A stretch of 32,000 nt of DNA from an uncultured Lentisphaeria bacterium (lineage in GTDB: Bacteria > Verrucomicrobiota > Lentisphaeria > JABSQK01 > JAJFLO01): positions 1,170,001 to 1,202,000 of the forward strand of contig OX638337.1 of assembly GCA_951812855.1 (NCBI GenBank). The letters run 5' to 3'. Position numbers and translations under genes: made by a program. Position 1 is the first letter of the stretch; the number at the start of each line of letters is the position of its first letter. The notes under the pieces are model-generated. The model was given only the letters and a program-made list of their open reading frames with translations, made no database searches and was not told the DNA's origin. This document shows, in pieces, positions 5,712-27,258 of the stretch.

Positions 5712-7490
5712 TTACGATTGTTCAGAAGACACAGGCAATGTAATTTTAAATATACTGCCCCTGCTTTCCTGGCTTTCTACCGTAATGCTGCCGTTATGAA
5801 TTTGGATTACATGTTTCACAATTGCCAACCCTAATCCTGATCCACCTGTGTGTCTGTCTCTTGATTTATCAACCCGGTAAAATCGTTCAAAAATTCTGTC
5901 ACACTCTTGAGCAGGAATACCAATTCCATTATCCTTAACGTGGATTTCTAACAAATCCGTATCAAAATTTGATGTTATCACTATTTCAGATTTTTTTGGA
6001 CTGTAGTTTACCGCATTCTCCAGGATATTCCGAATTGCTTCTTCTAAAAGACCATGATTACCAAAAACATCTCCATCATTCAAATCTTGTTTCAAGTCAA
6101 TCTCTTTTTCTTTAATTTTAGTTGATATCGACGTGACTGCTCTTTGTACAGTGTCCCTGACATTCTGCTTTTCAAACTTCTTATATAAGCTATAATCTCC
6201 CTGATCCAATTTTGCCAGATAGAATAAATCATCGATAATGTTATTAATGCGTTTCGTGTTATTTTCAATCATTTTAATAAAGCCTGCAGCCTGCGTCGGG
6301 TCAGTGTTAATACATTCCGGGAGTGCCTCAATGGTTCCCTGGATCGTAGTTAGTGGCGTTTTTAATTCGTGAGAAACATTGTCAAAAAATTGTTGTCTGA
6401 CAAGTTCAAGCTCTTTTATTCGTGTTACATCTGTGAAGACCAGTAAAAGCCCTTGAGGCTGATCCTTTTCTAATTCCAGTTTGACGCCTGAAACAACATA
6501 CTTATTTAATTTATTGTTGTCTGAAGACAACTCCAATTCTAATAGTTTTTTTGTGTGATTATCAGACTTAACTAACGAATCAATCATGGATTTTAATTCA
6601 TAGTCACGATTAACTTCTAAAACAGATTTTCCGGGGTACTCTTCATTTTGATCAAGATTCCAGAACGATTTGGCAGCAATATTTATAACAATAATATTTC
6701 GAAGATGATCCAGAACGATGATACCTTCATTCATATTTTCAAAGATCATTTTCCACTGGTTATTATATTTTCGTAATTCATTCTGATTATCCTGCAGTTT
6801 ATCTGTCATTAATTTTATCGAATTACCCAATTTCCAAAACTCGGTAAATTTAGATTGTGCAATCTTTACCGTGCTATTTCCGGCAATAATTTCATTAATC
6901 GAATTAATCAGTTGCTGGATCGATTGGTCAATAATCCCTGAAATAATCGCTGATGCGAGGACGATGATACAAAAAAACGTTAAAATGGCCAGGCTGGATT
7001 GAGATAAAAAGATACGGAGCCGTTTCCAGTTATTTTGCACATTTTCAGATAAACGAAGATAAACAATTCTGTTGTCAATTTTATGCCCAAGAGTTACGGC
7101 AAAGCTGAGAATATACTCGGATGACACCAAATCATAGACTTGACTATATTCGTTTGGAATGATTTTTTTGTCGATATGATAGTTTGACCCATGTAGAGAA
7201 TCAGCTACAACACCCCCATCTTCGCCAATCAGGGTAACGTGCATATCTGTTAATATTGCAATTTTTTGACAATACAGGTTCCAGGTCATTTCGGAATCGG
7301 GTGCATCACCGAAATATGACGATAAGAATAATTTGGCTATTTGGCTGTTCTTACGTAACGCCTCTTTTATAGATAAAATTTGTAATTCATGATAAATTTG
7401 AAATTGGAAATAAATGAAAAGGAAAAGCCCCAATCCCATAAATATGCTTAAACAATTAAATATCCAATAAGCAAGTTTCTTGCGATTCAT
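5712..7490 (-). CDS. phoR: phosphate-regulon sensor histidine kinase (PhoR-like; TM-HAMP-PAS-HisKA-HATPase)
   Basis: H-box FFDNVSHELKTPLTTI; N, G1 and G2 boxes (NAVNYSP, DNGIGI, GGSGLGLAIV). Immediately downstream of the response regulator, within the pst-phoU cluster. Confidence 0.85.
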   Translation of the reverse strand: MNRKKLAYWIFNCLSIFMGLGLFLFIYFQFQIYHELQILSIKEALRKNSQIAKLFLSSYFGDAPDSEMTWNLYCQKIAILTDMHVTLIGEDGGVVADSLHGSNYHIDKKIIPNEYSQVYDLVSSEYILSFAVTLGHKIDNRIVYLRLSENVQNNWKRLRIFLSQSSLAILTFFCIIVLASAIISGIIDQSIQQLINSINEIIAGNSTVKIAQSKFTEFWKLGNSIKLMTDKLQDNQNELRKYNNQWKMIFENMNEGIIVLDHLRNIIVINIAAKSFWNLDQNEEYPGKSVLEVNRDYELKSMIDSLVKSDNHTKKLLELELSSDNNKLNKYVVSGVKLELEKDQPQGLLLVFTDVTRIKELELVRQQFFDNVSHELKTPLTTIQGTIEALPECINTDPTQAAGFIKMIENNTKRINNIIDDLFYLAKLDQGDYSLYKKFEKQNVRDTVQRAVTSISTKIKEKEIDLKQDLNDGDVFGNHGLLEEAIRNILENAVNYSPKKSEIVITSNFDTDLLEIHVKDNGIGIPAQECDRIFERFYRVDKSRDRHTGGSGLGLAIVKHVIQIHNGSITVESQESRGSIFKITLPVSSEQS

Positions 7491-7492
7491 TT

Positions 7493-8185
7493 TTACTCGC
7501 TAAATTTATACCCATCACCATGAACAGTTTTAATATAAACTGATCCGGCACCGAGTTTTTTGCGTAGAGAAGACATATGTACATCAATCGTTCTATATGT
7601 TATAAATGAGTCTTCACCCATTACATCACTAATGATTTTTTCCCTACTCATTACCCATCCAGGATGTTTGGCTAACAATTCCAAAATACGAAATTCATTA
7701 GCTGTTAATTCCAGCTTTTTCGTCCCCACCATTACATCCCGAGTATTAGGGTCAAGTGTTAATTTCCCCCGAATTATTTTTTCATCACTTTCGTATTGTG
7801 ATTCTTTTCTTTCGTGTCGACGTAAAACACTGGCAATTCGAGCTAAAAGAATTCTCGGACTAAACGGTTTCTTTATATAGTCATCGGCTCCGATTTTTAA
7901 TCCGACAACTTCATCTGTTTCTTCCTTCCTGGCAGTAAGCATCATAATCGGAATTGAATTAAATTCGGGATTAGTTTTTAATCGATAACAAACCTGATGT
8001 CCATCCATTCCCGGCATCATTAAATCCAATAAAATCAAATCGGGTTTTAGAAGCTCACATAATCTTATTCCTTCCTCACCATCACGTGCTTTGTTAACGG
8101 AGAATCCATCCTTTTCAAGATGATAAGATAACATTTCAAGAATATCAGGTTCATCATCTATTACTAATATCGTTTTTTTCGGCAT
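7493..8185 (-). CDS. phoB: OmpR/PhoB-family response regulator
   Basis: Receiver domain ILVIDDEPDI...DLILLDLMMPGMDG...KPF; C-terminal winged-helix LTANEFRILELLA...GDGYKF. Context is next to phoU and phoR. Confidence 0.85.
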   Translation of the reverse strand: MPKKTILVIDDEPDILEMLSYHLEKDGFSVNKARDGEEGIRLCELLKPDLILLDLMMPGMDGHQVCYRLKTNPEFNSIPIMMLTARKEETDEVVGLKIGADDYIKKPFSPRILLARIASVLRRHERKESQYESDEKIIRGKLTLDPNTRDVMVGTKKLELTANEFRILELLAKHPGWVMSREKIISDVMGEDSFITYRTIDVHMSSLRKKLGAGSVYIKTVHGDGYKFSE

Positions 8186-8234
8186 CTTTACAGCTTATTG
8201 TTAATGATATGACCAGGTGCTTTTAATCAGTATT

Positions 8235-8897
8235 CTATTTACCGGAAATATGATGGCGAACAATTTCTCCCTGGGTCATATACAATACATCTTCAGCAAT
8301 ATTAGTGGCAGAGTCACCAATCCGTTCGATAGTCCGTGATACGGAAATTAAAAATAGAAGAGGTTCCATCCGATCCGGACATTCTTTAAGTTGCTGTTTG
8401 TATTCAGCAATAACTTCATTATTGAGTTTATCGACGATATCATCGTTCTGACATACCCTGGTTGCCAGAGGAGAATCCAGATTGACAAGTGAGTCAAGAC
8501 TCATTTTTACCATTTTTTGGGTTTCGTCGAACATTAAAGAAAGTTTTTGAGAGATTTGAATTTTTTCGTATTTTGCTATTTCCAAAACATACTCAGCAAT
8601 TTTTGCTGCTAAATCACCGATACGCTCTAAATCATTATTCATTTTTAAAAGACCAATAATCATTCTTAAATCCTTGGCAACAGGCTGATACAGTGCCATT
8701 ATTTTCAGACAATCTTCCTCAAATTCAACTTCATGTTCATCTATTTTCTTATCATAATCAATGACCTTTTGAGCCAGGACAAGATCAAAATTCGCCAACG
8801 CTTTATACGAACTTTTTATTGCATTTTCTATTTCAGCACTCAGTTCCAGTATTTCATCTTTTAAATTTTTTATTCCACGTTCTAAATGGGTGATCAT
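8235..8897 (-). CDS. phoU: phosphate signalling/transport accessory protein PhoU
   Basis: Two PhoU repeats with E-R-I-G-D motifs (DLERIGDLAAKIAE and TIERIGDSATNIAE); follows pstB. Confidence 0.9.
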   Translation of the reverse strand: MITHLERGIKNLKDEILELSAEIENAIKSSYKALANFDLVLAQKVIDYDKKIDEHEVEFEEDCLKIMALYQPVAKDLRMIIGLLKMNNDLERIGDLAAKIAEYVLEIAKYEKIQISQKLSLMFDETQKMVKMSLDSLVNLDSPLATRVCQNDDIVDKLNNEVIAEYKQQLKECPDRMEPLLFLISVSRTIERIGDSATNIAEDVLYMTQGEIVRHHISGK

Positions 8898-8936
8898 TCA
8901 AGTCTCCTGACAAATTAAAAATATAACCGTTTATTA

Positions 8937-9710
8937 TTATCCAAATCGTCCGCTGATATAATCTTCTGTTTGTTTTTCATGAGGGTTACTGAATATGTGT
9001 TCGGTGTCGCCGCATTCTATTAACTTACCCAGATAAAAAAATGCCGTTCTATCCGATATACGCGAAGCCTGCTGCATGTTGTGTGTCACAATGATAATCG
9101 TAAATTTTTTCTTCAGTTCTAAAATCGTTTCTTCAATTTTACCGGCAGCAATCGGATCCAGTGCTGAACAGGGTTCATCCATCAAAATAATTTCAGGCTT
9201 GATTGCGATGGTTCTGGCAATACATAGACGTTGAGTCTGACCTCCGGACAAACCCAATGCACTCGAATGAAGTCTGTCTTTTACCTCATCCCATAATGCC
9301 GCATTTATTAAACTTTCTTCTACAGCATTGTCCAGAACTTCCTTATCTTTTATACCTGCTATTCGTAACCCAAAAACAATATTTTCATAAATGCTTTTTG
9401 GAAAAGGGTTTGATTTTTGAAAGATCATACCAACTCGTTTACGTAAACCTATAACATCCAGGTCCCGTGTATAGATGCTCTGACCTATCAGTTGAATATC
9501 ACCCTCATGATTTGTATTTTCAATTAAATCATTCATCCGATTGATGCTGCGCAATAAAGTTGATTTTCCACATCCTGACGGACCGATAAAGGCAATAATT
9601 TCATTATTGACAACTCTCAGGTCAATGTCAAAAAGCACCTGATTTAGACCGTAATAAAAACTAAAATTATTAATCGAAATAATGTCTGAATTTCGTTTAA
9701 CGCTGGTCAC
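8937..9710 (-). CDS. pstB: phosphate ABC transporter ATP-binding protein
   Basis: Walker [10 protein letters not shown]; signature [13 protein letters not shown]; Walker [13 protein letters not shown]; characteristic PstB C-terminus [10 protein letters not shown]. Confidence 0.95.
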
Positions 9711-9790
9711 TGTGATTTCACTTTTATTTGATGTTCACAGTCCATGACAACTGCCTGATTCAATGATTAACGGTTCCACAAATTGCATAA

Positions 9791-11473
9791 TTAAATTGCG
9801 CTCATTGAATATTTTTTTCGCAGCTTTTCACGTACTGTTACAGCAGTAAGATTAAGGATAACAACTAATAGTATCAAAAATAATGTTGTCGCAAATACCA
9901 TCGGTTTTGCCGCTTCTGAATCAGGTGATTGAAAACCAAGATCATATATATGAAATCCCAAATGCATAAATTTCTGATCTAAATGAAAAAAGGGATAAAT
10001 ACCGTCAACCGGTAATGATGGCGCCAGTTTGACAACGCCAACAAGCATCAACGGGGCAACTTCCCCGGCACCTCTGGCCATTGCTAAAATTACTCCGGTT
10101 AATATACCCGGCACTGAAGCAGGCAGTACAATCCGGTATAAACACTGCCATTTTGATGCACCGCATGCAAGACCGGCTTCTCTTAAACCTCGCGGAACCG
10201 CTGATAACCCTTCTTCAGTTGCGACAATAACAATCGGCACAGTAAGTAATGCCAGTGTCAATGAAGCCCATAATATACCTCCGGTACCAAATGTCGGTGT
10301 TGGCAACGACTCGGAAAAAAATAATTTATCAATGGAGCCGCCTAAAAAATAAACAAAAAAACCAAGCCCGAAAACACCAAATACAATTGATGGAACTCCC
10401 GCGAGATTATTAACTCCGATTCTCACTAATCGCACCCATACACCTTTGCTGGCGTATTCATGGAGATAAATTGCAGTAATAATACCAAAGGGTGTCACGA
10501 TCAATGTCATAACAAGGGTCATGATAAATGTTCCAAAAATCGATGGAAAAATTCCCCCCTCTGTATTCGCTTCTCTTGGATTACTTACGATAAAATTGGA
10601 TATATTTTGGAAAAATCCAAAAAGTTTGTCTGAAATCGACATTTGATTCGGATAATGATAATTAATAATTGAACCTAATGGAATGATTATACGCTTCCCT
10701 GTAATCAAGCGACATTGGAGTTTGTGCGAATTCTGAGTCTGACGCAGCCGGGAGGCTCTCTCAGCGAGTTGTTCATACTCTTTCTGCAATGATTTTAATT
10801 TCTCCTCAAGTCCCTTTAGTGAATCGGGATCATCGGTTGTCCGCTTTTGCAATTGGAAGGATTTAATCTTTCTGTTTATTTTTCCTATTTCTGCTTTTTC
10901 CAATTTTTTTATTTCATCCCGCCGATCCGCAACCTCATTTACAAGCGTGGAAAATTGCCCTTCAAATATACTTGAATCACTGTCAATAGCAGTGTCATTA
11001 TCTATTATAATTTTTTCGGGATAACCGATCAAATTACCATATTCTTCACGTTCAATTTTTATGAGCTGCCCGGGTTTTGTGATTGTTTTAATATCACCGG
11101 CATCAATATAAAAAAACGAAAATCCATAGTGATCCTTATTACCGACATATAACTGCCATTCCATATTCGATTCATTTGGGTCCCCGCTTTTTTTAACCTC
11201 AGCAATAGATTTTTGCTGCTTAAGAACGATTTCACCACCTAATATTTTTGAACCGTCGATATGTGTCTGACTATCCTGATTAAGTGTAATTTGGACAATG
11301 TCTTTTATCCAGAATGCCCTCGTTCCTTCCCAGACAATCAGACCAATAATAAAAAACACCATCAATAAACAAAGTGAAAGTCCAAGGCCTGACAGCCAGA
11401 TATAACAATCTCCTTTAGGTGGCTTTTTCAACACACTTTCCGAATTAATAAGGTTTCTATCTATATCGGTCAT
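9791..11473 (-). CDS. pstA: phosphate ABC transporter permease PstA, long form with a large extracytoplasmic insert
   Basis: C-terminal permease core with the ARGAGEVAPLMLVG motif. One N-terminal TM is followed by a roughly 250-270 aa non-hydrophobic region that includes a Lys/Glu-rich probable coiled coil (EIKKLEKAEIGK...LKSLQKEYEQLAERASRLRQ). 4-nt overlap with pstC. Confidence 0.9.
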   Translation of the reverse strand: MTDIDRNLINSESVLKKPPKGDCYIWLSGLGLSLCLLMVFFIIGLIVWEGTRAFWIKDIVQITLNQDSQTHIDGSKILGGEIVLKQQKSIAEVKKSGDPNESNMEWQLYVGNKDHYGFSFFYIDAGDIKTITKPGQLIKIEREEYGNLIGYPEKIIIDNDTAIDSDSSIFEGQFSTLVNEVADRRDEIKKLEKAEIGKINRKIKSFQLQKRTTDDPDSLKGLEEKLKSLQKEYEQLAERASRLRQTQNSHKLQCRLITGKRIIIPLGSIINYHYPNQMSISDKLFGFFQNISNFIVSNPREANTEGGIFPSIFGTFIMTLVMTLIVTPFGIITAIYLHEYASKGVWVRLVRIGVNNLAGVPSIVFGVFGLGFFVYFLGGSIDKLFFSESLPTPTFGTGGILWASLTLALLTVPIVIVATEEGLSAVPRGLREAGLACGASKWQCLYRIVLPASVPGILTGVILAMARGAGEVAPLMLVGVVKLAPSLPVDGIYPFFHLDQKFMHLGFHIYDLGFQSPDSEAAKPMVFATTLFLILLVVILNLTAVTVREKLRKKYSMSAI

Positions 11474-13737
11474 ATCGTTTTATACTTTTTCCTTAAATAT
11501 TGTCGCAAAACTTCGGCAATTGTGTTGAGTATAAACGTAAAGATAAATAAAATCATGGCACTGAAAAACAACGTCCGATAAAGGGTTCCTTTATATGGTG
11601 CCTCGGGTAATTCTACGGCAATATTTGCAGACAATGTCCTCATACCTGAAAACATATCAAAATTCATGACCGGCGTGTTGCCGGTTGCCATAAGGACAAT
11701 CATTGTTTCGCCAATAGCCCTTCCAAAACCGATTATCAATCCTGAAAATATCCCTGCGGATGCTGTGGGAATTACAATGTTAAAACAGGTTTGCCATCGA
11801 CTTGCTCCTAACGCCATTGATGCAGAAGTTAAATTTTTAGGAACATTCGTTAATGCATCTTCAGAAATTGAAAAGATGATGGGGATGACAGCGAAGCCCA
11901 TTATAAATCCAACCAAAATAGCGTTTCTTTGTTCAAACGGGACCCCCGAATTTTGTGAATACCAAAGGGTAAAATTTGCTGCTGTTTCGTTTGTACCGGG
12001 ATTCCTTACAGAAAAAAAACTGGATTCAACAATCGGAGAGATATACCACGACAGCACCCCGCCCGCAAAAATAACAAAAAATAAAATAAGGTACTCATAA
12101 CCAATGTGACAATTCTTTGTCAATGATGTCGGCAGCAATGACCAAACCCAGGCAAAAAGCAACGTGCTAACCGGTAAAATAATCATTGTTAAAAACAAGA
12201 AAATAATATTTTTTTCAAAAACGGGAGCCAGCCATAATGCCGCAAGAAAACCAAGAACAACCGAGGGAAGTGACGCCATAATTTCCATCGTCGGTTTAAT
12301 AATAGCACGATATCGGAAACTAAGAAATTGAGATGTATAAATCGCTGCAAGCAATGCAATTGGACTGGCAAAAATCATCGCATAAAAGGTCCCTTTCAAT
12401 GTCCCGCAAATTAGCGGTATCATAGACATCTTCGGTTCGTATTCATCAGTACCGCCGGTTGACTGCCATTCGTATTTCGGAAACGAAGCACCTTCATACC
12501 AAATTTTTGAAAAATACGCTTGAAAACTGGCTTCAGGATGCGGATCAGACAGGGTTAGAATACGCAATTTATTTGAGTCATCCAGAACTAATATTTTATC
12601 ATATTTTGCACTGATTTTTGCATCTTTTATCTGATAATTTACCTGACTTTCCCAGCGGATTTCTTCAGTTGTTGCATATCGGAGACTGATATAATTTTTA
12701 GTTCCAAGTAAAAACAGTTTATTGCGCAAACTTTGTGCATAAAACTGGAACCTATCAGACAAACTATTTAACGATTTGGTATGATAAAATATTCGGCTGC
12801 TTTCAAATTCGGGAACGAGTAAACTGTAAATCCGGTTTTCTCCTGTCTTCGAAGTAAAGACCAATGAAACTCCGCCGAATAAGAAATTGATCGAGTCAAT
12901 TTCAGAATTACTCAAATCTTGAAATGGTTGAAAGACCTGCATTAGATCACAGGAATTCGGATTGATTTTAAAATAGTACACATCCCCGGACAATGTTGTT
13001 ATAACTAAAATATCGCCTTGAGAATTAATACGGATTTTATCGGGTGTACCATCAATTTGATCATTGAATTTGTAGCGATTACGAATACTAATTTTGCCCG
13101 CTCCAAACAGTGTTTTTTTCTGGCTTAAGCTGATAGCTGATACTTCTTGCTGTCCATCAATTTCCTGCATGGCTGCTATAAATTTATTTTTCCCGGAATC
13201 TCCATACTCGATCATATGAATAGGAAAGCCTTGTCTACCGATCTGATAGTTACTGTCAACCTTGGGCTTTACCGATAGCTTACGAATATTATTATCGAAT
13301 TGTTCGTCATAATTTAATTTAACAATTTTAACGGCCCCATCATTTGTGCCGCAAATCAATTCCTGCCGATTTTGATTATAATTTATAGTTGAAAAGGTAT
13401 CGCCATCAGCTAACGAGAAATTACTGATATTGCCAATATTATGTTCCAAATCAACAAAACGAAAATTACCTTTACGATCTAAAACAAATGGAAGTTCAGA
13501 CCATTCATCCAGACCAACAAGCTCATATTCTCCAGCCGGCAAATCAATAACGATATCTTCACTAATCTCAGGTTTCTGAAACAGCGGCAGTGTCTGAAAA
13601 AAAATAAAAATAAAAATACTGAACACAATCGCCACAACACATATCCCGCCAAAACGGATTAATTTTCCCATAAAACTGTCAACCAGAATGACCTGTCTTG
13701 CGGTATGATATCGATTTTCTATTTTTTTTTTAACCAT
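11470..13737 (-). CDS. pstC: phosphate ABC transporter permease PstC, long form with a ~400 aa N-terminal extracytoplasmic domain
   Basis: C-terminal permease core with GRAIGETMIVLMATGN. One N-terminal TM, then a long non-hydrophobic beta-rich region before the membrane domain starts near MIPLICGTLKGTFYAMIF. Confidence 0.9.
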   Translation of the reverse strand: MVKKKIENRYHTARQVILVDSFMGKLIRFGGICVVAIVFSIFIFIFFQTLPLFQKPEISEDIVIDLPAGEYELVGLDEWSELPFVLDRKGNFRFVDLEHNIGNISNFSLADGDTFSTINYNQNRQELICGTNDGAVKIVKLNYDEQFDNNIRKLSVKPKVDSNYQIGRQGFPIHMIEYGDSGKNKFIAAMQEIDGQQEVSAISLSQKKTLFGAGKISIRNRYKFNDQIDGTPDKIRINSQGDILVITTLSGDVYYFKINPNSCDLMQVFQPFQDLSNSEIDSINFLFGGVSLVFTSKTGENRIYSLLVPEFESSRIFYHTKSLNSLSDRFQFYAQSLRNKLFLLGTKNYISLRYATTEEIRWESQVNYQIKDAKISAKYDKILVLDDSNKLRILTLSDPHPEASFQAYFSKIWYEGASFPKYEWQSTGGTDEYEPKMSMIPLICGTLKGTFYAMIFASPIALLAAIYTSQFLSFRYRAIIKPTMEIMASLPSVVLGFLAALWLAPVFEKNIIFLFLTMIILPVSTLLFAWVWSLLPTSLTKNCHIGYEYLILFFVIFAGGVLSWYISPIVESSFFSVRNPGTNETAANFTLWYSQNSGVPFEQRNAILVGFIMGFAVIPIIFSISEDALTNVPKNLTSASMALGASRWQTCFNIVIPTASAGIFSGLIIGFGRAIGETMIVLMATGNTPVMNFDMFSGMRTLSANIAVELPEAPYKGTLYRTLFFSAMILFIFTFILNTIAEVLRQYLRKKYKTI

Positions 13738-13819
13738 TTTATTTAGTGAGAGAAGAGACGATTTGGAGAGATTAACTGCAGTATCAATTCAGTGATGTGA
13801 TTCAAACTGAGGAAAATTT

Positions 13820-14785
13820 TCAATTCAGCTGATCAAGTATTTCCGAACAGGCGAATGCAGGCAGCGGATAATAGCCATCTTTGACAACAATTTGCTGGCC
13901 GCTTTTTGACAGAACATAGGATAAAAATTCCAGTGTCAATTTGTCAATTGATTTATTGGGTTTTTTATTTACATAAACAAAAAGAAATCGTGCTAATGGA
14001 TACTCTCCACTTAAACAATTTTCCATTGATGGGTCTCTATAATCATTGCCCTCATCGGAAAGCGGCAGTGCACGTACACTTGAGGTTTTGTAGCCAATCC
14101 CGGAGTAACCGATTCCTCCCAATTCTGTAGCAATACCTTGAACTACCGACGACGATCCGGGCTGTTCTTTTACATTGACTTTGAAATCACCTTTACCCAA
14201 TGCAACCTTTTTGAAATAAGCATAAGTTCCTGAAGCACTGTTACGTCCGTAAAGTGTAATTGGTTTGCTGTCCCACAAACCACTCAAGCCGACCTGTCCC
14301 CATCTTGAAATTGGATTACCGCCTTTTTTGTAGGTACTCGAAAAAATGCTGTCCACCTGGGATAAGTTTAATCCACTGACAGGATTATTCTTGTGCACAA
14401 ATACAGCCAGAGCATCAACAGCAACCTTGATCTGAGTTGGTTTATAACCGAACTTACTTTCAAACATGTCCAATTCCTTTGCCTTCATTGCCCGACTCAT
14501 CGGTCCTAACTGGGCAATTTCCTCAATAAGTGCCGGCGGTGCTGTAGAAGACCCTTTGCCTTCAATCTGTATCTTGACATTCGGATACATTTTTTGAAAG
14601 CCTTCTGCCCATAGTGTCATCAGATTATTCAAGGTGTCCGAACCGATACTGTTAATCCTGCCTGTAACTCCCGAAACCTTTTTATACAACTTAAGGTCTG
14701 CATCAACCTGAATTACCTGAGACTGGACACTCAATGCCAATCCCGCCAACACACTTAAACTTATAATTTTTATTTTGTTAATCAT
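13820..14785 (-). CDS. pstS: phosphate ABC transporter substrate-binding protein PstS, copy A
   Basis: Signal peptide MINKIKIISLSVLAGLALSV; GSDTL, GKGSSTAP and SASGTYAYF blocks of the PstS/PBP family. Start set at ATG 14785 (GGAGGA SD 5 nt upstream, and the same start as copy B) rather than the track start at 14797. Confidence 0.9.
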   Translation of the reverse strand: MINKIKIISLSVLAGLALSVQSQVIQVDADLKLYKKVSGVTGRINSIGSDTLNNLMTLWAEGFQKMYPNVKIQIEGKGSSTAPPALIEEIAQLGPMSRAMKAKELDMFESKFGYKPTQIKVAVDALAVFVHKNNPVSGLNLSQVDSIFSSTYKKGGNPISRWGQVGLSGLWDSKPITLYGRNSASGTYAYFKKVALGKGDFKVNVKEQPGSSSVVQGIATELGGIGYSGIGYKTSSVRALPLSDEGNDYRDPSMENCLSGEYPLARFLFVYVNKKPNKSIDKLTLEFLSYVLSKSGQQIVVKDGYYPLPAFACSEILDQLN

Positions 14786-14836
14786 GATTTCCTCCATTGT
14801 TGTTTGTAGTTGATAAATTGATGGTGAAACTTACAG

Positions 14837-15020
14837 TTAGAACTTATATACTAAATCGAGTTGAACCAGCCTGCCCTCTCGACTGCTTCCACTGATCTCT
14901 TCAAGATCCATATACGTACTTCCCAGTGACAAGGTATCTTTGAGTTTATATTTGACACTCACTTTATGTCCCTTAACATCCGTAGAAGTCATCCCGGCGG
15001 TATCACCAAAATCACTGTCC
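14837..15020 (-). pseudogene. 3'-terminal fragment of the porin gene (duplicate of 17264-17447)
   Basis: Encodes ...TAGMTSTDVKGHKVSVKYKLKDTLSLGSTYMDLEEISGSSREGRLVQLDLVYKF, identical to the porin C-terminus. The track ORF 14837..15052 is a chimera that runs on into the 3' end of the GT gene in another frame. Confidence 0.85.
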
Positions 15021-16157
15021 GCTCGGGAACTGCACACGCACCACTGCCTCATATATCTCTAACAACAAATTACTTACATAATCCCAGCGAAATTTCGCTG
15101 CTGCCTGACGGCACTTATGTTCGTCAGGCCGCGACTTGTGCACATCATGCATGACCTGAGCGATCGCATTAACGTTCTTTGGGTTTACAGCATGCACAAT
15201 AGACGCATCGTCAATCACGCCGCCGAGCCCTTCACCTTCACCGTGTACTATTGGCAGCCCCTGAGAAAGCGCTTCCAGGTAGACCAAACCGAACGACTCA
15301 TAAAATGAAGGCAATACAAACAGGTCACTTTTTGCATAAACGAGTTTTAGCTCATCCACAGACATACGTCCCTGAATCTGTACATTGCAATCAGGGTGAG
15401 ACGGTGCGAACTGCCTTTCGTAAGAACGGCCTTTGGACTCCGCCGCACCAACAAGAATCACATTAACTGGTGATTTTTCAGCGAATCTCTCAGCAGCGCC
15501 AACCACGTTCTTCAGATTTTTCCATGCCGAAAAATCAGAGGTCGCAACAACGGTAAAAGGTCGATCTTTCGAATCTATGCGCGGTGGATTGTCGGTAAAC
15601 CAGTTGCACTCAATAGCATTAGGTACTACCGAACAACGCACCTCGATATTTGAACGCACCTTTGTTGAGAGACAACCCAAGAATCTTTGTTTGTATGCTG
15701 GTGTTAGAAATACTATTTGACTTGCCTCAGTGAGGATCTTATCGCAGAATCCGTTCAAATCAGGTCGATACTTACGAAAAAAGTTAAGGTCAGTATTCCG
15801 CACGGTAACGATATAGGGTATCCCGAACTGCTGTTTCAGATGATATGCCACACCGCCATCACTGTACAAAAAATGGCTGTGAACCAGTTCATAATCCTCA
15901 ACTGCAACACTCGAGCAGATCGATCTTCGTACCTGCTCGATCTTGAGGTTGTAAAGCAGCCGATGGTAGGGACGCAGAAGATGATCATATATGAACGTCA
16001 CATTGCGGAGATCTTCCAATGCATTCACGCCAACCTCAGCTTCAGTTCGGACCGGGACGAAAACGGTCTGATGTTCACAACTTCGTGACAACTCGGAAAC
16101 AAGGTTTCGACAGACTTTCGATCCCGCATAGTCGCTGGATATATGTAGAATTTTCAT
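15012..16157 (-). CDS. GT4-family (GT-B fold) glycosyltransferase, compositionally foreign
   Basis: N-terminal MKILHISSDY...; E-x7-E motif ESFGLVYLEALSQGLPIV. Hand GC counts of 60-nt lines give 31/60 (15121-15180), 27/60 (15421-15480) and 30/60 (15901-15960), against 26/60 in pstS (14221-14280) and 20/60 in pstC (12601-12660). The last three codons (GGA CAG TGA) lie inside the repeat. Confidence 0.8.
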   Translation of the reverse strand: MKILHISSDYAGSKVCRNLVSELSRSCEHQTVFVPVRTEAEVGVNALEDLRNVTFIYDHLLRPYHRLLYNLKIEQVRRSICSSVAVEDYELVHSHFLYSDGGVAYHLKQQFGIPYIVTVRNTDLNFFRKYRPDLNGFCDKILTEASQIVFLTPAYKQRFLGCLSTKVRSNIEVRCSVVPNAIECNWFTDNPPRIDSKDRPFTVVATSDFSAWKNLKNVVGAAERFAEKSPVNVILVGAAESKGRSYERQFAPSHPDCNVQIQGRMSVDELKLVYAKSDLFVLPSFYESFGLVYLEALSQGLPIVHGEGEGLGGVIDDASIVHAVNPKNVNAIAQVMHDVHKSRPDEHKCRQAAAKFRWDYVSNLLLEIYEAVVRVQFPSGQ

Positions 16158-16164
16158 CGAGCCA

Positions 16165-17447
16165 ATTTTATTTAGTGAGAGAGACGATTTGGAGAGATTA
16201 ACTGCAGTATCAATTCAGTGATGTGATTCAAACTGAGGAAAATTTTCAATTCAGCTGATCAAGTATTTCCGAACAGGCGAATGCAGGCAGCGGATAATAG
16301 CCATCTTTGACAACAATTTGCTGGCCGCTTTTTGACAGAACATAGGATAAAAATTCCAGTGTCAATTTGTCAATTGATTTATTGGGTTTTTTATTTACAT
16401 AAACAAAAAGAAATCGTGCTAATGCATACTCTCCACTTAAACAATTTTCCATTGATGGGTCTCTATAATCATTGCCCTCATCGGAAAGCGGCAGTGCACG
16501 TACACTTGATGTTTTGTAGCCAATCCCGGAGTAACCGATTCCTCCCAATTCTGTAGCAATACCTTGAACTACCGACGACGATCCGGGCTGTTCTTTTACA
16601 TTGACTTTGAAATCACCTTTACCCAATGCAACCTTTTTGAAATAAGCATAAGTTCCTGAAGCACTGTTGCGTCCGTAAAGTGTAATTGGTTTGCTGTCCC
16701 ACAAACCACTCAAGCCGACCTGTCCCCATCTTGAAATTGGATTACCGCCTTTTTTGTAGGTACTCGAAAAAATGCTGTCCACCTGGGATAAGTTTAATCC
16801 ACTGACAGGATTATTCTTGTGCACAAATACAGCCAGAGCATCAACAGCAACCTTGATCTGAGTTGGTTTATAACCGAACTTACTTTCAAACATGTCCAAT
16901 TCCTTTGCCTTCATTGCCCGACTCATCGGTCCTAACTGGGCAATTTCCTCAATAAGTGCCGGCGGTGCTGTAGAAGACCCTTTGCCTTCAATCTGTATCT
17001 TGACATTCGGATACATTTTTTGAAAGCCTTCTGCCCATAGTGTCATCAGATTATTCAAGGTGTCCGAACCGATACTGTTAATCCTGCCTGTAACTCCCGA
17101 AACCTTTTTATACAACTTAAGATCTGCATCAACCTGAATTACCTGAGACTGGACACTCAATGCCAATCCCGCCAACACACTTAAACTTATAATTTTTATT
17201 TTATTAATCATGAATGAGTTACCTTATTATTTGTAGTTGATAAATTGATGGTGAAATTTACAGTTAGAACTTATATACTAAATCGAGTTGAACCAGCCTG
17301 CCCTCTCGACTGCTTCCACTGATTTCTTCAAGATCCATATACGTACTTCCCAGTGACAAGGTATCTTTGAGTTTATATTTGACACTCACTTTATGTCCCT
17401 TAACATCCGTAGAAGTCATCCCGGCGGTATAACCAAAATCACTGTCC
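16165..17447. repeat. 1.28-kb direct repeat, copy B
   Basis: See copy A. Here the repeat continues seamlessly into the full-length porin gene on one side and abuts the GT start region on the other. Confidence 0.9.
16246..17211 (-). CDS. pstS: phosphate ABC transporter substrate-binding protein PstS, copy B
   Basis: 321 aa, differing from copy A by one residue (EYALARF vs EYPLARF) plus four synonymous changes. The upstream RBS patch differs (AAGGTAA-like versus GGAGGA in copy A). Confidence 0.9.
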   Translation of the reverse strand: MINKIKIISLSVLAGLALSVQSQVIQVDADLKLYKKVSGVTGRINSIGSDTLNNLMTLWAEGFQKMYPNVKIQIEGKGSSTAPPALIEEIAQLGPMSRAMKAKELDMFESKFGYKPTQIKVAVDALAVFVHKNNPVSGLNLSQVDSIFSSTYKKGGNPISRWGQVGLSGLWDSKPITLYGRNSASGTYAYFKKVALGKGDFKVNVKEQPGSSSVVQGIATELGGIGYSGIGYKTSSVRALPLSDEGNDYRDPSMENCLSGEYALARFLFVYVNKKPNKSIDKLTLEFLSYVLSKSGQQIVVKDGYYPLPAFACSEILDQLN

Positions 17448-18616
17448 TTTACTTGTTGATACATCGAATCCGCTTCGATAGAGGCAAAGGTATAGCCGAT
17501 TTTCAACCGCCCCATCTCTCCACTCGCACCCAATGCCCAGGCGGTATCATTTTCGTCTGGATCAAGTGCCCGACCACGATTGTCAGTGATTCCAGTATGT
17601 CCAACTGCACCGTCAGCACCGAAATTACTGGCAAGATGTCCGAATAATTTTATTTTCATACCATCAAGTTTGATTTTCATGTGTGAATAAACATCACCCA
17701 CCTTAAAATCGAATTTATCATCAATACCAGCGGCTATGCCGGGCGGTGGATTGGTCCCAATGGTTGCAGCATCATTGAAGTAATAGTAACCACCTGCAAC
17801 TAAAAACTCTGCATCTTCAGACTTCACTTTATAGCCAACCTGAGAACCAACTAAAAATGCGTTCGCCTCGTCTCGGCCAATATGAAAAACATCATAAGCA
17901 CCTGCTGTTGCGAACAGCCCGCCAGTATTCACTGCAGCAGTCAATCCTATTGGACGAACATCACTATCCCAAAGTATGAGTGATGTCTTAAACGGATTTT
18001 TCTGTTGTCCAATTGTTAAATTAATATTTTCCCAACTATGTTTTGAATAAACATAGTCAAGTCGGAGATCACCGGTTTCAAATACACTGTTATCTGAAAA
18101 CGTATCATTAGTACTTGTGGCACCCGAACCACCGGTTGCAATGCCGACGCCTAATTCCCAGTTATCGGCTTCATTTTTCCAGACACCGCCAATTCTGAGG
18201 CGAACACGCTGTCTGTCTCTGGTTTCCTCTTTCCTTACACCACGAGTCCGTTCCTGACGTTCATATCTGAATCGTGCATCACCTTTGATCGCAAGACCGT
18301 TAATTTTTTTACCAAGTTTTACAGTCGGTGTATCCTTGATAACGCTATAGCTTTCATTGAAATCAACCATCTTTTCATCGATATCATTCAACCTGTTTTC
18401 AATAACTGATTGACTTTTATTCTTATTGGCGATTGCCTCATTGTTCTGCTGGAGTTGATTTTTCAATCCATTAATTTCTTTTTGTTGATGCTCTAATTGT
18501 GCCTGTATATCCAGGATGAGTTTTTTTAGTTCTTCAATTTGGGAATCTCCTGAAAATGCGATCTGGTTGGTAAATGTAACAAATAAAAGCGTAGCAGTTA
18601 AGTGTTTTAATTTCAT
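17264..18616 (-). CDS. outer-membrane porin, putatively phosphate-selective and Pho-regulated, with an N-terminal coiled coil
   Basis: Signal peptide MKLKHLTATLLFVTFTNQIAFS; heptad-like Q/E/K/L-rich segment (residues ~25-80); alternating beta-strand pattern ending in the C-terminal aromatic LDLVYKF. It is the first gene of the pst operon and lies behind a Pho-box array. Confidence 0.75.
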   Translation of the reverse strand: MKLKHLTATLLFVTFTNQIAFSGDSQIEELKKLILDIQAQLEHQQKEINGLKNQLQQNNEAIANKNKSQSVIENRLNDIDEKMVDFNESYSVIKDTPTVKLGKKINGLAIKGDARFRYERQERTRGVRKEETRDRQRVRLRIGGVWKNEADNWELGVGIATGGSGATSTNDTFSDNSVFETGDLRLDYVYSKHSWENINLTIGQQKNPFKTSLILWDSDVRPIGLTAAVNTGGLFATAGAYDVFHIGRDEANAFLVGSQVGYKVKSEDAEFLVAGGYYYFNDAATIGTNPPPGIAAGIDDKFDFKVGDVYSHMKIKLDGMKIKLFGHLASNFGADGAVGHTGITDNRGRALDPDENDTAWALGASGEMGRLKIGYTFASIEADSMYQQVKDSDFGYTAGMTSTDVKGHKVSVKYKLKDTLSLGSTYMDLEEISGSSREGRLVQLDLVYKF

Positions 18617-18760
18617 AATGTTTAGTCCTTATTTAATAATTTTATTTTGCAATTTTTCTATATTCCTTGTGTTTTATACTTTTTTACAAAAACAACATTC
18701 ACCCCTCCTTAAATCGAAATAAACAGTTTCTATAAAATAATTAATTTAATGTTATGATTA

Positions 18761-18814
18761 AGTATAAAAAGGAATGGTTAAATATTTATGAAGTAAATGT
18801 TAATTTTTTGTTAA
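18761..18814 (-). promoter_or_regulatory. Pho-box array (four phased hexamers) plus a -10 element of the porin-pst operon promoter
   Basis: Minus-strand reading: TTAACA-aaaaa-TTAACA-tttac-TTCATA-aatat-TTAACC-attcctttt-TATACT. The hexamers occupy + strand coordinates 18809-18814, 18798-18803, 18787-18792 and 18776-18781, an exact 11-bp period. The -10 is at 18761-18766. Confidence 0.65.
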
Positions 18815-26619: not shown

Positions 26620-27258
26620 ATTCTCAATTTCAAACCTGCCTGATATGTTTGAAAAAGACCGGATAAAAATGGTTGAAAAAATAAAATCCTATGGTCTTAC
26701 AAATGAACGTATTCATTAATATAATGAAGAGTCTGCCCCGTCACCTTTTTTACCTGACGGTGAGGGTAACAGCCATAGTTATGACGATTACCCAATTAAT
26801 ATTGAATTTGGTCAAACCATTTCTCAGCCTTATATTGCGGCATACATGACAGATTATCTTGATATAAATGAAACGGACAAAATTCTGAAAACAGGAACCG
26901 GATCAGGTTATCAAACAGCAATTTTAGCACTCCCGGGAAGGGACGTTTACACTATTGAAACTGTACCTGAATTATTATCACATGCGACTAAAATAATTAA
27001 TTCTATTGGAATAAAGAATATTAATTTTCTACATGGAAACGGATATAATGGATGGGAAACTGAACACCCCTTTGATAAAATCATTTTAACATGTTCGCCA
27101 AAGAAAATACCAGAAACGCTGATTCGACAATTAACTGAAAATGGAAAACTGATTTTGCCTGCAGGCAATCACTGTGTCTCGTCTCAAATGAGAACGGAAA
27201 CATAACTCAAAAAAGGGATTTACAAGTTAGATTTGTCCCTGTGATTAACGAACAGTAA
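26612..27258 (+). pseudogene. pcm: protein-L-isoaspartate O-methyltransferase gene disrupted by three frameshifts
   Basis: Homology runs through three frames. Frame a: ...DRIKMVEKIKSYGLTNERI, then TAA at 26717. Frame b (26715-26750): INIMKSLPRHLF (conserved PRH). Back to frame a after a T6 run (26746-26751): LPDGEGNSHSYDDYPINIEFGQTISQPYIAAYM...GTGSGYQTAIL...LILPAG. Frame c from ~27166: QSLCLVSNENGNITQKRDLQVRFVPVINEQ-stop (27256-27258). The track ORF 26846..27205 is only the middle piece. Confidence 0.75.

Follow-up and report, generated by a model that had tools for sequence, protein, structure and literature searches.

We analysed a 32-kb stretch of the genome of an uncultured Lentisphaeria bacterium (contig OX638337.1, positions 1,170,001 to 1,202,000; the whole stretch is referred to as the window), in which a single gene for a GT4 glycosyltransferase (GT) lies inside the pstSCAB phosphate-uptake operon, enclosed by two 1.28-kb direct repeats that each carry a complete pstS. 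On balance, we consider it likely that this locus represents a genuine and recent insertion-duplication, by which a foreign GT4 for surface glycans entered a phosphate-starvation operon, and that it arose and works as proposed below.

All genes of the operon region are located on the minus strand and follow each other, along the direction of transcription, as porin, pstS-B, GT, porin 3' fragment, pstS-A, pstC, pstA, pstB, phoU, phoB and phoR. The operon starts with an intact porin gene (17264-18616, 450 aa; Pfam PF16930, Porin_5, 9.9e-19), the orthologues of which stand before pstS in every relative examined. The last 184 bp of this gene, the 52-nt spacer between porin and pstS, pstS-B (16246-17211), and a spacer of the pstS-pstC type together form repeat copy B (16165-17447), which is the upstream copy along transcription. 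pstS-B encodes a phosphate-binding protein of 321 aa (PBP_like_2, 1e-29; TIGR02136, 2.1e-76, above cutoff). The downstream copy A (13736-15020) consists of an orphan 3' fragment of the porin gene (14837-15020; again the last 184 bp, with a weak match to the Porin_5 C-terminus, 0.006), the spacer, pstS-A (13820-14785, 321 aa) and the native spacer that abuts pstC. The open reading frame (ORF) listing extends pstS-A to 14797, but the ATG at 14785 is preferred, as it matches copy B and is located after a Shine-Dalgarno sequence. Between the two copies lies the inserted segment X (15021-16164, 1144 bp), which comprises an 8-nt leader and the coding sequence of the GT, with no stop codon of its own. 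Segment X is joined to the end of the spacer at junction J1 (16164/16165) and to a point within the porin gene at junction J2 (15020/15021). The GT ORF itself (15012-16157) encodes 381 aa. Its ATG is located 8 nt from the repeat boundary, and it ends with the three codons GGA CAG TGA, which come from porin sequence in a different reading frame. The spacer between pstS-B and the GT measures 88 nt and that between pstS-A and pstC 82 nt.

The two repeats (1285 bp at 13736-15020 and 1283 bp at 16165-17447) are 98.4% identical over 1286 alignment columns, on which repeat search, MAFFT and blastn agree. In total, the alignment contains 16 mismatches and two gap openings, namely eight isolated substitutions, an indel of 3 nt that falls into the pstS-pstC spacer, and a dense cluster just before the pstS ATG, in which eight substitutions and one indel lie within 16 columns. 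The encoded PstS-A and PstS-B proteins differ in a single residue (P263A). Together with a column count, these data confirm to the base the coordinates, contents and differences of the repeats that a first inspection of the letters (the original prediction) had given. They also agree with its description of the interval of 1144 bp as one GT4 ORF with an E-x7-E motif (Glycos_transf_1, 2.8e-22; E287-x7-E295), and the alignment reproduced both the position of the GT start codon and the three porin-derived end codons. A chimeric ORF of 71 aa (15052-14837, minus strand), annotated as a gene in ENA, begins within the GT 3' end in a frame other than that of the GT and continues through the 60 C-terminal porin residues; this ORF and the orphan porin fragment are probably by-products of the junction.

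The window was found to be 100% identical to contig atg002920l (11.9 kb) and 99.69% identical over 21 kb to the circular contig ptg000035c (1,941,460 bp), both of ENA ERZ18545485, while a third record (NCBI/ENA, 1,947,381 bp) encodes the same proteins. The ptg and atg names presumably denote primary and alternate hifiasm contigs, which we take to reflect long and accurate reads that exceed the 3.7-kb unit. Both haplotypes contain the two repeat copies, the GT and both junctions. Hence, the predicted repeat-insert-repeat (A-X-A) architecture is present in two haplotypes of one hifiasm assembly. In a four-way alignment, three substitutions and a 3-nt indel distinguish the A and B copies of either haplotype, which indicates that the duplication is older than the haplotype split. 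A collapse of the copies into strain variants of a single locus, the outcome that the original prediction had named as fatal to it, was not observed, and judged by these shared copy-specific differences the two copies are not such variants.

By composition, the GT is foreign to its surroundings, as had been proposed. Its GC content is 46.7%, compared to a mean of 38.0% in the 22 other genes of the window (z 2.8), and at third codon positions 46.1% compared to 32.4% (z 3.7). Its codon usage is the poorest fit to the pooled usage of these other genes, and the tetranucleotide correlation of the insert with the window (r 0.43 versus 0.87 ± 0.08) is the lowest of 108 tiles. The best homologue among 5.8 billion proteins is just 40% identical, so that there is neither a recent paralogue in the organism's own genome nor an identifiable donor. 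No close relatives were detected on the viral contigs of IMG/VR, and the best match on plasmids was 25.7% identical.

In line with the original prediction, the 32-kb window holds no transposase, integrase or attC-like element, and neither terminal inverted repeats at the insert ends, including imperfect ones, nor an Rfam element matching the insert were found. An integron cassette was rejected on the basis of the missing integrase, end inverted repeats and Rfam match, and because there is no non-coding DNA 3' of the GT; its stop codon lies in porin-derived sequence, which leaves no room for an attC site. An insertion sequence (IS) or composite transposon was rejected likewise, since transposase and terminal inverted repeats are lacking and the duplication measures 1.28 kb rather than 2-14 bp. 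A phage route was dismissed as well, as its defining features are absent. Furthermore, a Pfam GT4-conflict match was not taken as a sign of a defence system, as it overlaps the generic GT1 domain and had no PADLOC match.

The GT is complete. It matched PF00534 with 79.5 bits (cutoff 26.4) and PF13692 with 62.6 bits (cutoff 27), in addition to weaker N-terminal Glyco_transf_4 matches. The protein aligns end to end with homologues of 370-395 aa, which indicates that no functional domain was clipped and that a few C-terminal residues at most were replaced; the assumption that the native 3' end had probably been cut off at the junction does not hold in any meaningful sense. All 29 columns that are invariant in an alignment of 92 sequences (GT included) are retained, among them E287, E295 and K213. 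The AlphaFold2 model (pLDDT 95.7, pTM 0.92) displays the two Rossmann domains of a GT-B fold, and the best Foldseek matches were MshA, BshA, GlgA and PimB' (E 1e-19 to 1e-16, TM ~0.7), retaining GT4 enzymes that represent the nearest solved structures. According to domain scores, modelled fold and motifs, the GT is a member of the GT4/GT-B retaining glycosyltransferases.

Comparison with relatives provides information on the ancestral state. Five loci, L036, L037 and L038 (porin 71% identical), L041 (2.47-Mb contig, porin 50% identical) and L042 (1.95-Mb contig, porin 46% identical), contain a single pstS and no GT, and all have the order porin-pstS-pstC-pstA-pstB-phoU-phoB-phoR. Whether relatives show a plain porin-pstS-pstC arrangement had been raised with the original prediction, and all five do. 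Since these relatives have a plain operon with one pstS, the A-X-A arrangement is regarded as derived in the window lineage. The closest named relative is the metagenome-assembled genome Verrucomicrobia bacterium OFTM167 (L003), with a porin 74% and a PstS 86% identical. Its contig stops 778 bp past pstS in repeated non-coding DNA, so that it is not visible whether pstC follows.

In this relative (JAJFLO010000524.1), pstS is followed at 8870-9647 not by pstC but by ~780 bp that look non-coding. The beginning of the spacer recurs 621 bp further on (33 nt, 91%), with two more collinear direct repeats after it. Enclosed by these repeats is a 269-bp element whose terminal inverted repeats are perfect over 35 nt (9210-9244 and 9444-9478) and which resembles a miniature inverted-repeat transposable element (MITE). 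A hairpin of the CCGCC-TTAA-GGCGG type occurs in both spacer copies, and no Rfam match was obtained. The pstS-pstC spacer of OFTM167 may be a second, independent insertion-with-duplication. Large pstS-pstC gaps were also seen in Vibrionaceae (L006, L032) but were rejected as a parallel because they are not operon-embedded insertions. Each holds two ORFs on the opposite strand (504 and 692 aa in L006; 513 and 726 aa in L032), which we take to be ppx and ppk based on their sizes and on the usual gene content of Vibrio genomes.

As to the origin of the locus, the step from a native L-A-R to L-A-X-A-R (L and R being the flanks) would require two illegitimate joints, J1 and J2. We propose that promoterless, gene-sized foreign DNA encoding a complete retaining GT4 was joined through these two junctions, one placed at the start codon of pstC and the other within the porin gene, 184 bp from its end and at the border of a Lys and an Asp codon. 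The event would have duplicated the 1.28 kb between the joints and left the native genes undisrupted, with two intact pstS. This could have happened by (a) single-crossover integration of a ~2.4-kb circle carrying A and X, or (b) a template switch during replication or repair, similar to microhomology-mediated break-induced replication (MMBIR), to foreign DNA and back to a point 1.28 kb behind. Both routes fit the anatomy of the locus, and the insert lacks a replicon, marker or recombinase. The Campbell-type integration suggested originally is therefore only partly sustained: the repeat-flanked anatomy agrees with it, whereas signs of a replicon, marker or donor are absent and a template switch fits equally. 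A simple tandem duplication of [A+X] or [X+A] was rejected, as it would leave two copies of X or a non-native joint between spacer and pstC, whereas the joint between A and pstC is native.

The inserted gene probably shares its promoter with the operon. A Pho-box-like promoter (18760-18814, minus strand) is located ~150-200 nt upstream of the porin ATG and consists of the hexamers TTAACA, TTAACA, TTCATA and TTAACC, separated by aaaaa, tttac and aatat and hence phased at 11 bp, followed by a -10-like TATACT. Phased TT(A/T/C)ACA repeats are the known architecture of PhoP/PhoB-type boxes. The block is almost unchanged in L036, and TTAACA-N5-TTAACA is found upstream of the porin gene in L041 and L042 as well, in L042 again followed by TATACT. 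Although the sole matches to the pattern with 0 mismatches in the window fall at this promoter, the raw count (3, with 2.2 expected) is not above chance, so that the weight of the assignment rests on position and conservation. Taken together, these features suggest a putative PhoB regulation of the operon. Terminator-like hairpins were not detected on the minus strand from porin to pstC, and the spacers fold less stably than shuffled sequences (positive z-scores), with no attenuator or terminator hairpin. Given the conserved promoter and the lack of terminators, read-through from the porin gene via pstS-B, GT, porin fragment and pstS-A into pstCAB is the simplest expectation. The predicted promoter is thus supported, while read-through from it is a reasonable inference, and co-transcription of the GT under phosphate (Pi) starvation seems plausible. 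The GT ATG is situated 8 nt beyond the A-rich leader CACTAAATAAAA, which in the other copy lies immediately before the ATG of pstC. Under the proposed mechanism, the whole string from porin to phoU would be transcribed from the Pho-box-like promoter, the GT start codon would be placed in the A-rich, unstructured leader normally used by pstC, and phosphate limitation would result in a double dose of PstS together with a GT that probably modifies a surface glycan.

To narrow down the kind of GT, scores against NCBIfam models and the gene neighbourhoods of homologues were evaluated. All NCBIfam matches were below threshold and non-specific among GT4 models, with BshA, MshA, TuaC and EpsE at ~58-62 bits compared to cutoffs of 270-550; for TuaC, which was among the best matches, the score was 59.8 bits with a cutoff of 550. 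The five homologue neighbourhoods examined (P0002, P0003, P0014, P0051 and P0011) are all surface-polysaccharide clusters with Wzx, Wzy or Wzz. They additionally hold DegT-type aminotransferases, GFO/IDH/MocA oxidoreductases, acetyltransferases and further GTs, and in four of them hisH/hisF-like and asparagine-synthase-like genes adjoin the GT homologue. These contexts indicate a GT family of the O-antigen or capsule kind. The GT of the window probably acts on a surface glycan as well, although its homologues (≤40% identical) are too distant for a confident transfer of the acceptor.

The variation between haplotypes and copies gives some insight into the history of the locus. No difference was found in the 1144 bp of the GT segment, compared to 41 differences in ~17.4 kb of the non-repeat flanks (0.24%), whereas the two repeats show 24 differences (~15 events) in 2.57 kb, ~2.5 times the flank rate. 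Among the four pstS copies 13 sites are variable, and since ten of these are third positions, both pstS copies are regarded as constrained; three changes are non-synonymous (A14T, N247S, P263A). A patch at the ribosome-binding site (RBS) upstream of pstS-A (14788-14807, minus strand) contains ten changes in 20 nt, which create a GGAGGA 5 nt before the ATG at 14785. It occurs only in the haplotype of the window and L002, and copy A of L001 carries the B-type sequence. As the changes are too dense for point mutation, the patch would represent an allele imported from a diverged source, probably brought in by recombination. Furthermore, ~5 of ~12 singleton variants carry the outgroup state. Together with the RBS patch, they point to recombination with other alleles or between the copies instead of clock-like divergence. 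The higher divergence of the repeats beside an unchanged GT, and the singletons in the outgroup state, suggest that gene conversion or recombination between strains took place in the duplicated pstS region. In a RecA-proficient cell, direct repeats of kilobase length should readily be lost by recombination. That the structure nevertheless persisted across the haplotype split suggests selection for the duplicated state, and persistence and copy divergence together argue for selection on pstS dosage, the GT, or both.

Several other explanations have to be weighed against this reading. An assembly artefact, in which a false A-X-A was built from two strain variants of a single porin-pstS-pstC locus and a contaminant GT assembled along with them, is very improbable. 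It could be invoked because the copies differ by ~1.3%, which exceeds the haplotype difference in the flanks, and because the lineage is known from a single sample: exact look-ups of the GT, porin and pstS retrieved only one ENA sample and its NCBI copy, and yielded neither a single-copy revertant nor a highly identical allele from before the insertion. However, the architecture with both junctions is present in the circular primary contig, the alternate contig and the source record of the window, the names of which all follow the hifiasm style, and the copy-specific differences are common to both haplotypes. The GT measures just 1.1 kb and is flanked on both sides inside single contigs, and junction J2 provides it with an in-frame stop. 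Improbable, too, is the idea of the GT as a glycolipid synthase under Pho regulation (Agt/Pgt/MGlcDAG-synthase-like), which would replace phospholipids with glycolipids in phosphate starvation. The location of the GT within a Pho-type operon would agree with such a role, and GT4 includes lipid-acceptor enzymes, with models of which the GT gave weak NCBIfam matches. Glycolipid synthesis under Pi starvation is documented, for example in Caulobacter (PMC6445935). The scores against the three lipid-acceptor models tested remained far below cutoff, though, at 26.7 bits for MGlcDAG synthase (NF049988, cutoff 400), 31.8 for IagA/BgsA (NF053513, cutoff 460) and 39.3 for GlcN-PG synthase (NF053787, cutoff 480), which does not support membership in any of them and is no better than the matches to BshA, MshA and TuaC. 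A plcP-like or metallophosphoesterase ORF was not found in the 32-kb window, and all five homologue contexts are Wzx/Wzy polysaccharide clusters. Hence, the glycolipid function of the PlcP/Agt type put forward in the original prediction is not sustained; the result that it had named as contradicting a lipid role, with closest homologues of the O-antigen or exopolysaccharide kind, was obtained in five of five contexts.

A possible, if doubtful, alternative is that the pstS duplication is the selected trait and the GT a filler of the template switch, which has no role and is untranslated or enzymatically dead. P-limited marine microbes and phages often carry additional pstS copies. Both pstS are intact with mostly synonymous changes, and the remodelled RBS of pstS-A in one haplotype suggests an ongoing tuning of pstS expression. 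The features of the GT that agree with a passenger also count against a functional insertion. There is no Shine-Dalgarno sequence upstream of the GT, and glycan-biosynthesis genes that could act as partners are absent within 14 kb on either side. Of the 69 columns with ≥90% conservation among 118 homologues, 13 deviate from the consensus in the GT, the highest number of all members (mean 1.9 and maximum 12 in the others), and one of these departures, G181A, falls in the PNG motif that is 100% conserved. These departures could indicate a long branch, an altered specificity, or decay and loss of activity. With 2.7 differences expected and 0 seen between the haplotypes, the divergence of the GT is just marginally below expectation (P ~0.07), and at such low divergence the intact ORF is uninformative. 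Besides, co-transcription, translation of the GT and Pho control are predictions from the sequence, and no donor lineage could be named from the 5.8e9 proteins, the viral contigs and the plasmids. In contrast, the ends of the insert nearly coincide with those of one complete ORF, the ATG of which is placed so that the pstC leader can serve it; this would be rare for random filler. The EX7E motif, K213 and all 29 invariant columns of the 92-sequence alignment are kept, and the GT-B model is confident. The missing Shine-Dalgarno sequence is uninformative, since none was found upstream of pstC either.

Taken as a whole, an insertion-duplication that added a foreign GT4 to the operon is the explanation we prefer. 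A specific description of a GT embedded in pstSCAB was not found in the literature, and the combination of a lone foreign GT between duplicated pstS in pstSCAB without mobile-element machinery is apparently undescribed. There is precedent for each component, be it Pho-controlled envelope glycosyltransferases, pstS duplications or insertion-duplications, and the locus does not constitute a new class of system. If true, it would be a clean natural case of a promoterless foreign gene placed in one step under an existing stress regulon, in which a target duplication of gene size spares every native gene. A surface-glycan enzyme would thereby have been added, beside a doubled pstS, to the phosphate-starvation response of an uncultured bacterium of the Planctomycetes-Verrucomicrobia-Chlamydiae (PVC) group. 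For genome scanning, an A-X-A arrangement with direct repeats of kilobase size in a long-read assembly can be a sign that a gene was captured recently, even where no mobile-element gene is present. It may further be speculated, although we regard this as unlikely, that a one-step insertion-duplication wired the foreign surface-glycan GT into pstSCAB via the initiation region of pstC, so that a possibly host-associated cell alters its polysaccharide when phosphate is scarce. The 1.28-kb duplication would then be the device that let a promoterless gene into an essential operon with the native genes unbroken. Should the pstS-pstC spacer prove to be a recurrent site, as the duplicated spacer with its MITE-like insert in OFTM167 could indicate, operons could capture foreign genes through a general route of this kind.

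The remaining operon from pstC to phoR (5712-13737, minus strand) has the same gene order as in the relatives L036, L041 and L042 and comprises pstC (11470-13737, 755 aa), pstA (9791-11473), pstB (8937-9710), phoU (8235-8897), phoB (7493-8185) and phoR (5712-7490). PstC and PstA (560 aa) have ~2 times the usual length, with long N-terminal extensions ahead of the permease domain, and equally long forms occur in gammaproteobacterial, planctomycete and desulfobacterial loci retrieved with pstS. Outside the operon, an N6 DNA methylase (417 aa) and a type I specificity subunit (315 aa) are encoded at 26-2219 on the plus strand. They show the lowest GC contents of the window (32.8% and 29.1% versus 38%) and may represent a second acquired segment; a restriction subunit was not seen in the window. 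An ORF for a protein-L-isoaspartate O-methyltransferase (26846-27205, plus strand, 119 aa) covers profile positions 65-175 of 210; it seems truncated at its N-terminus and may be a pseudogene, in keeping with the small genome of 1.94 Mb.

Among known systems, the closest relatives of the GT are WbuB-like GT4 enzymes encoded in Wzx/Wzy O-antigen or capsule clusters beside hisH/hisF-like and asparagine-synthase-like genes; these enzymes are 33-40% identical end to end and have the HAHFLYSDG, RNTDxN and E-x7-E motifs in common with it; the label WbuB is our reading of the gene context. The GT of the window differs from them by its identity of ≤40%, the 13 of 69 conserved columns that are changed and its position away from any glycan cluster. 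With regard to the mode of acquisition, Campbell-type insertion-duplication leads to the same homology-insert-homology product, in which the duplicated segment is the homology of the incoming molecule. It is used in insertion-duplication mutagenesis with non-replicating circles and is seen in plasmid integration by homology. As in such products, the insert is flanked by repeats (98.4% identical) of a segment that is present as a single copy in the relatives. Evidence for a circular donor was not found in the insert, which is one ORF with an 8-nt leader and would be compatible with a transient, non-replicating circle. In contrast to the Campbell products, it has no replicon, marker or recombinase, and the implied ~2.4-kb circle would itself need two illegitimate joints. 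Duplications with templated insertion by fork stalling and template switching (FoSTeS) or MMBIR share with the locus the single event, the intact native genes and the new DNA at a novel joint. Natural transformation is known to produce merodiploids, which retain an intact copy where an insertion would be harmful, and pneumococcal cells with a cassette in an essential gene survive in this form (Johnston et al. 2013, PMC3784515). The pneumococcal duplications span 100-900 kb with IS-derived repeat borders, whereas the unit in the window measures 1.28 kb and has no IS. Moreover, tandem duplication can activate promoterless transferred genes (PMC11111574).

Surface-polymer GTs under phosphate-starvation control are represented by tuaABCDEFGH of B. 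subtilis, in which TuaC is a GT4, and by waaH of E. coli, a PhoB-regulated GT of the lipopolysaccharide (LPS) core. The tua and waaH genes have their own Pho-box promoters and belong to dedicated glycan loci. With four hexamers at 11-bp phasing and a TATACT, the window likewise appears to have a phased repeat box that is kept in orthologous promoters. Modification of LPS under Pi starvation is reported for E. coli O157:H7 in bioRxiv 10.1101/536201. In contrast to tua and waaH, the GT of the window is a lone and foreign gene, placed between two pstS copies inside pstSCAB itself.

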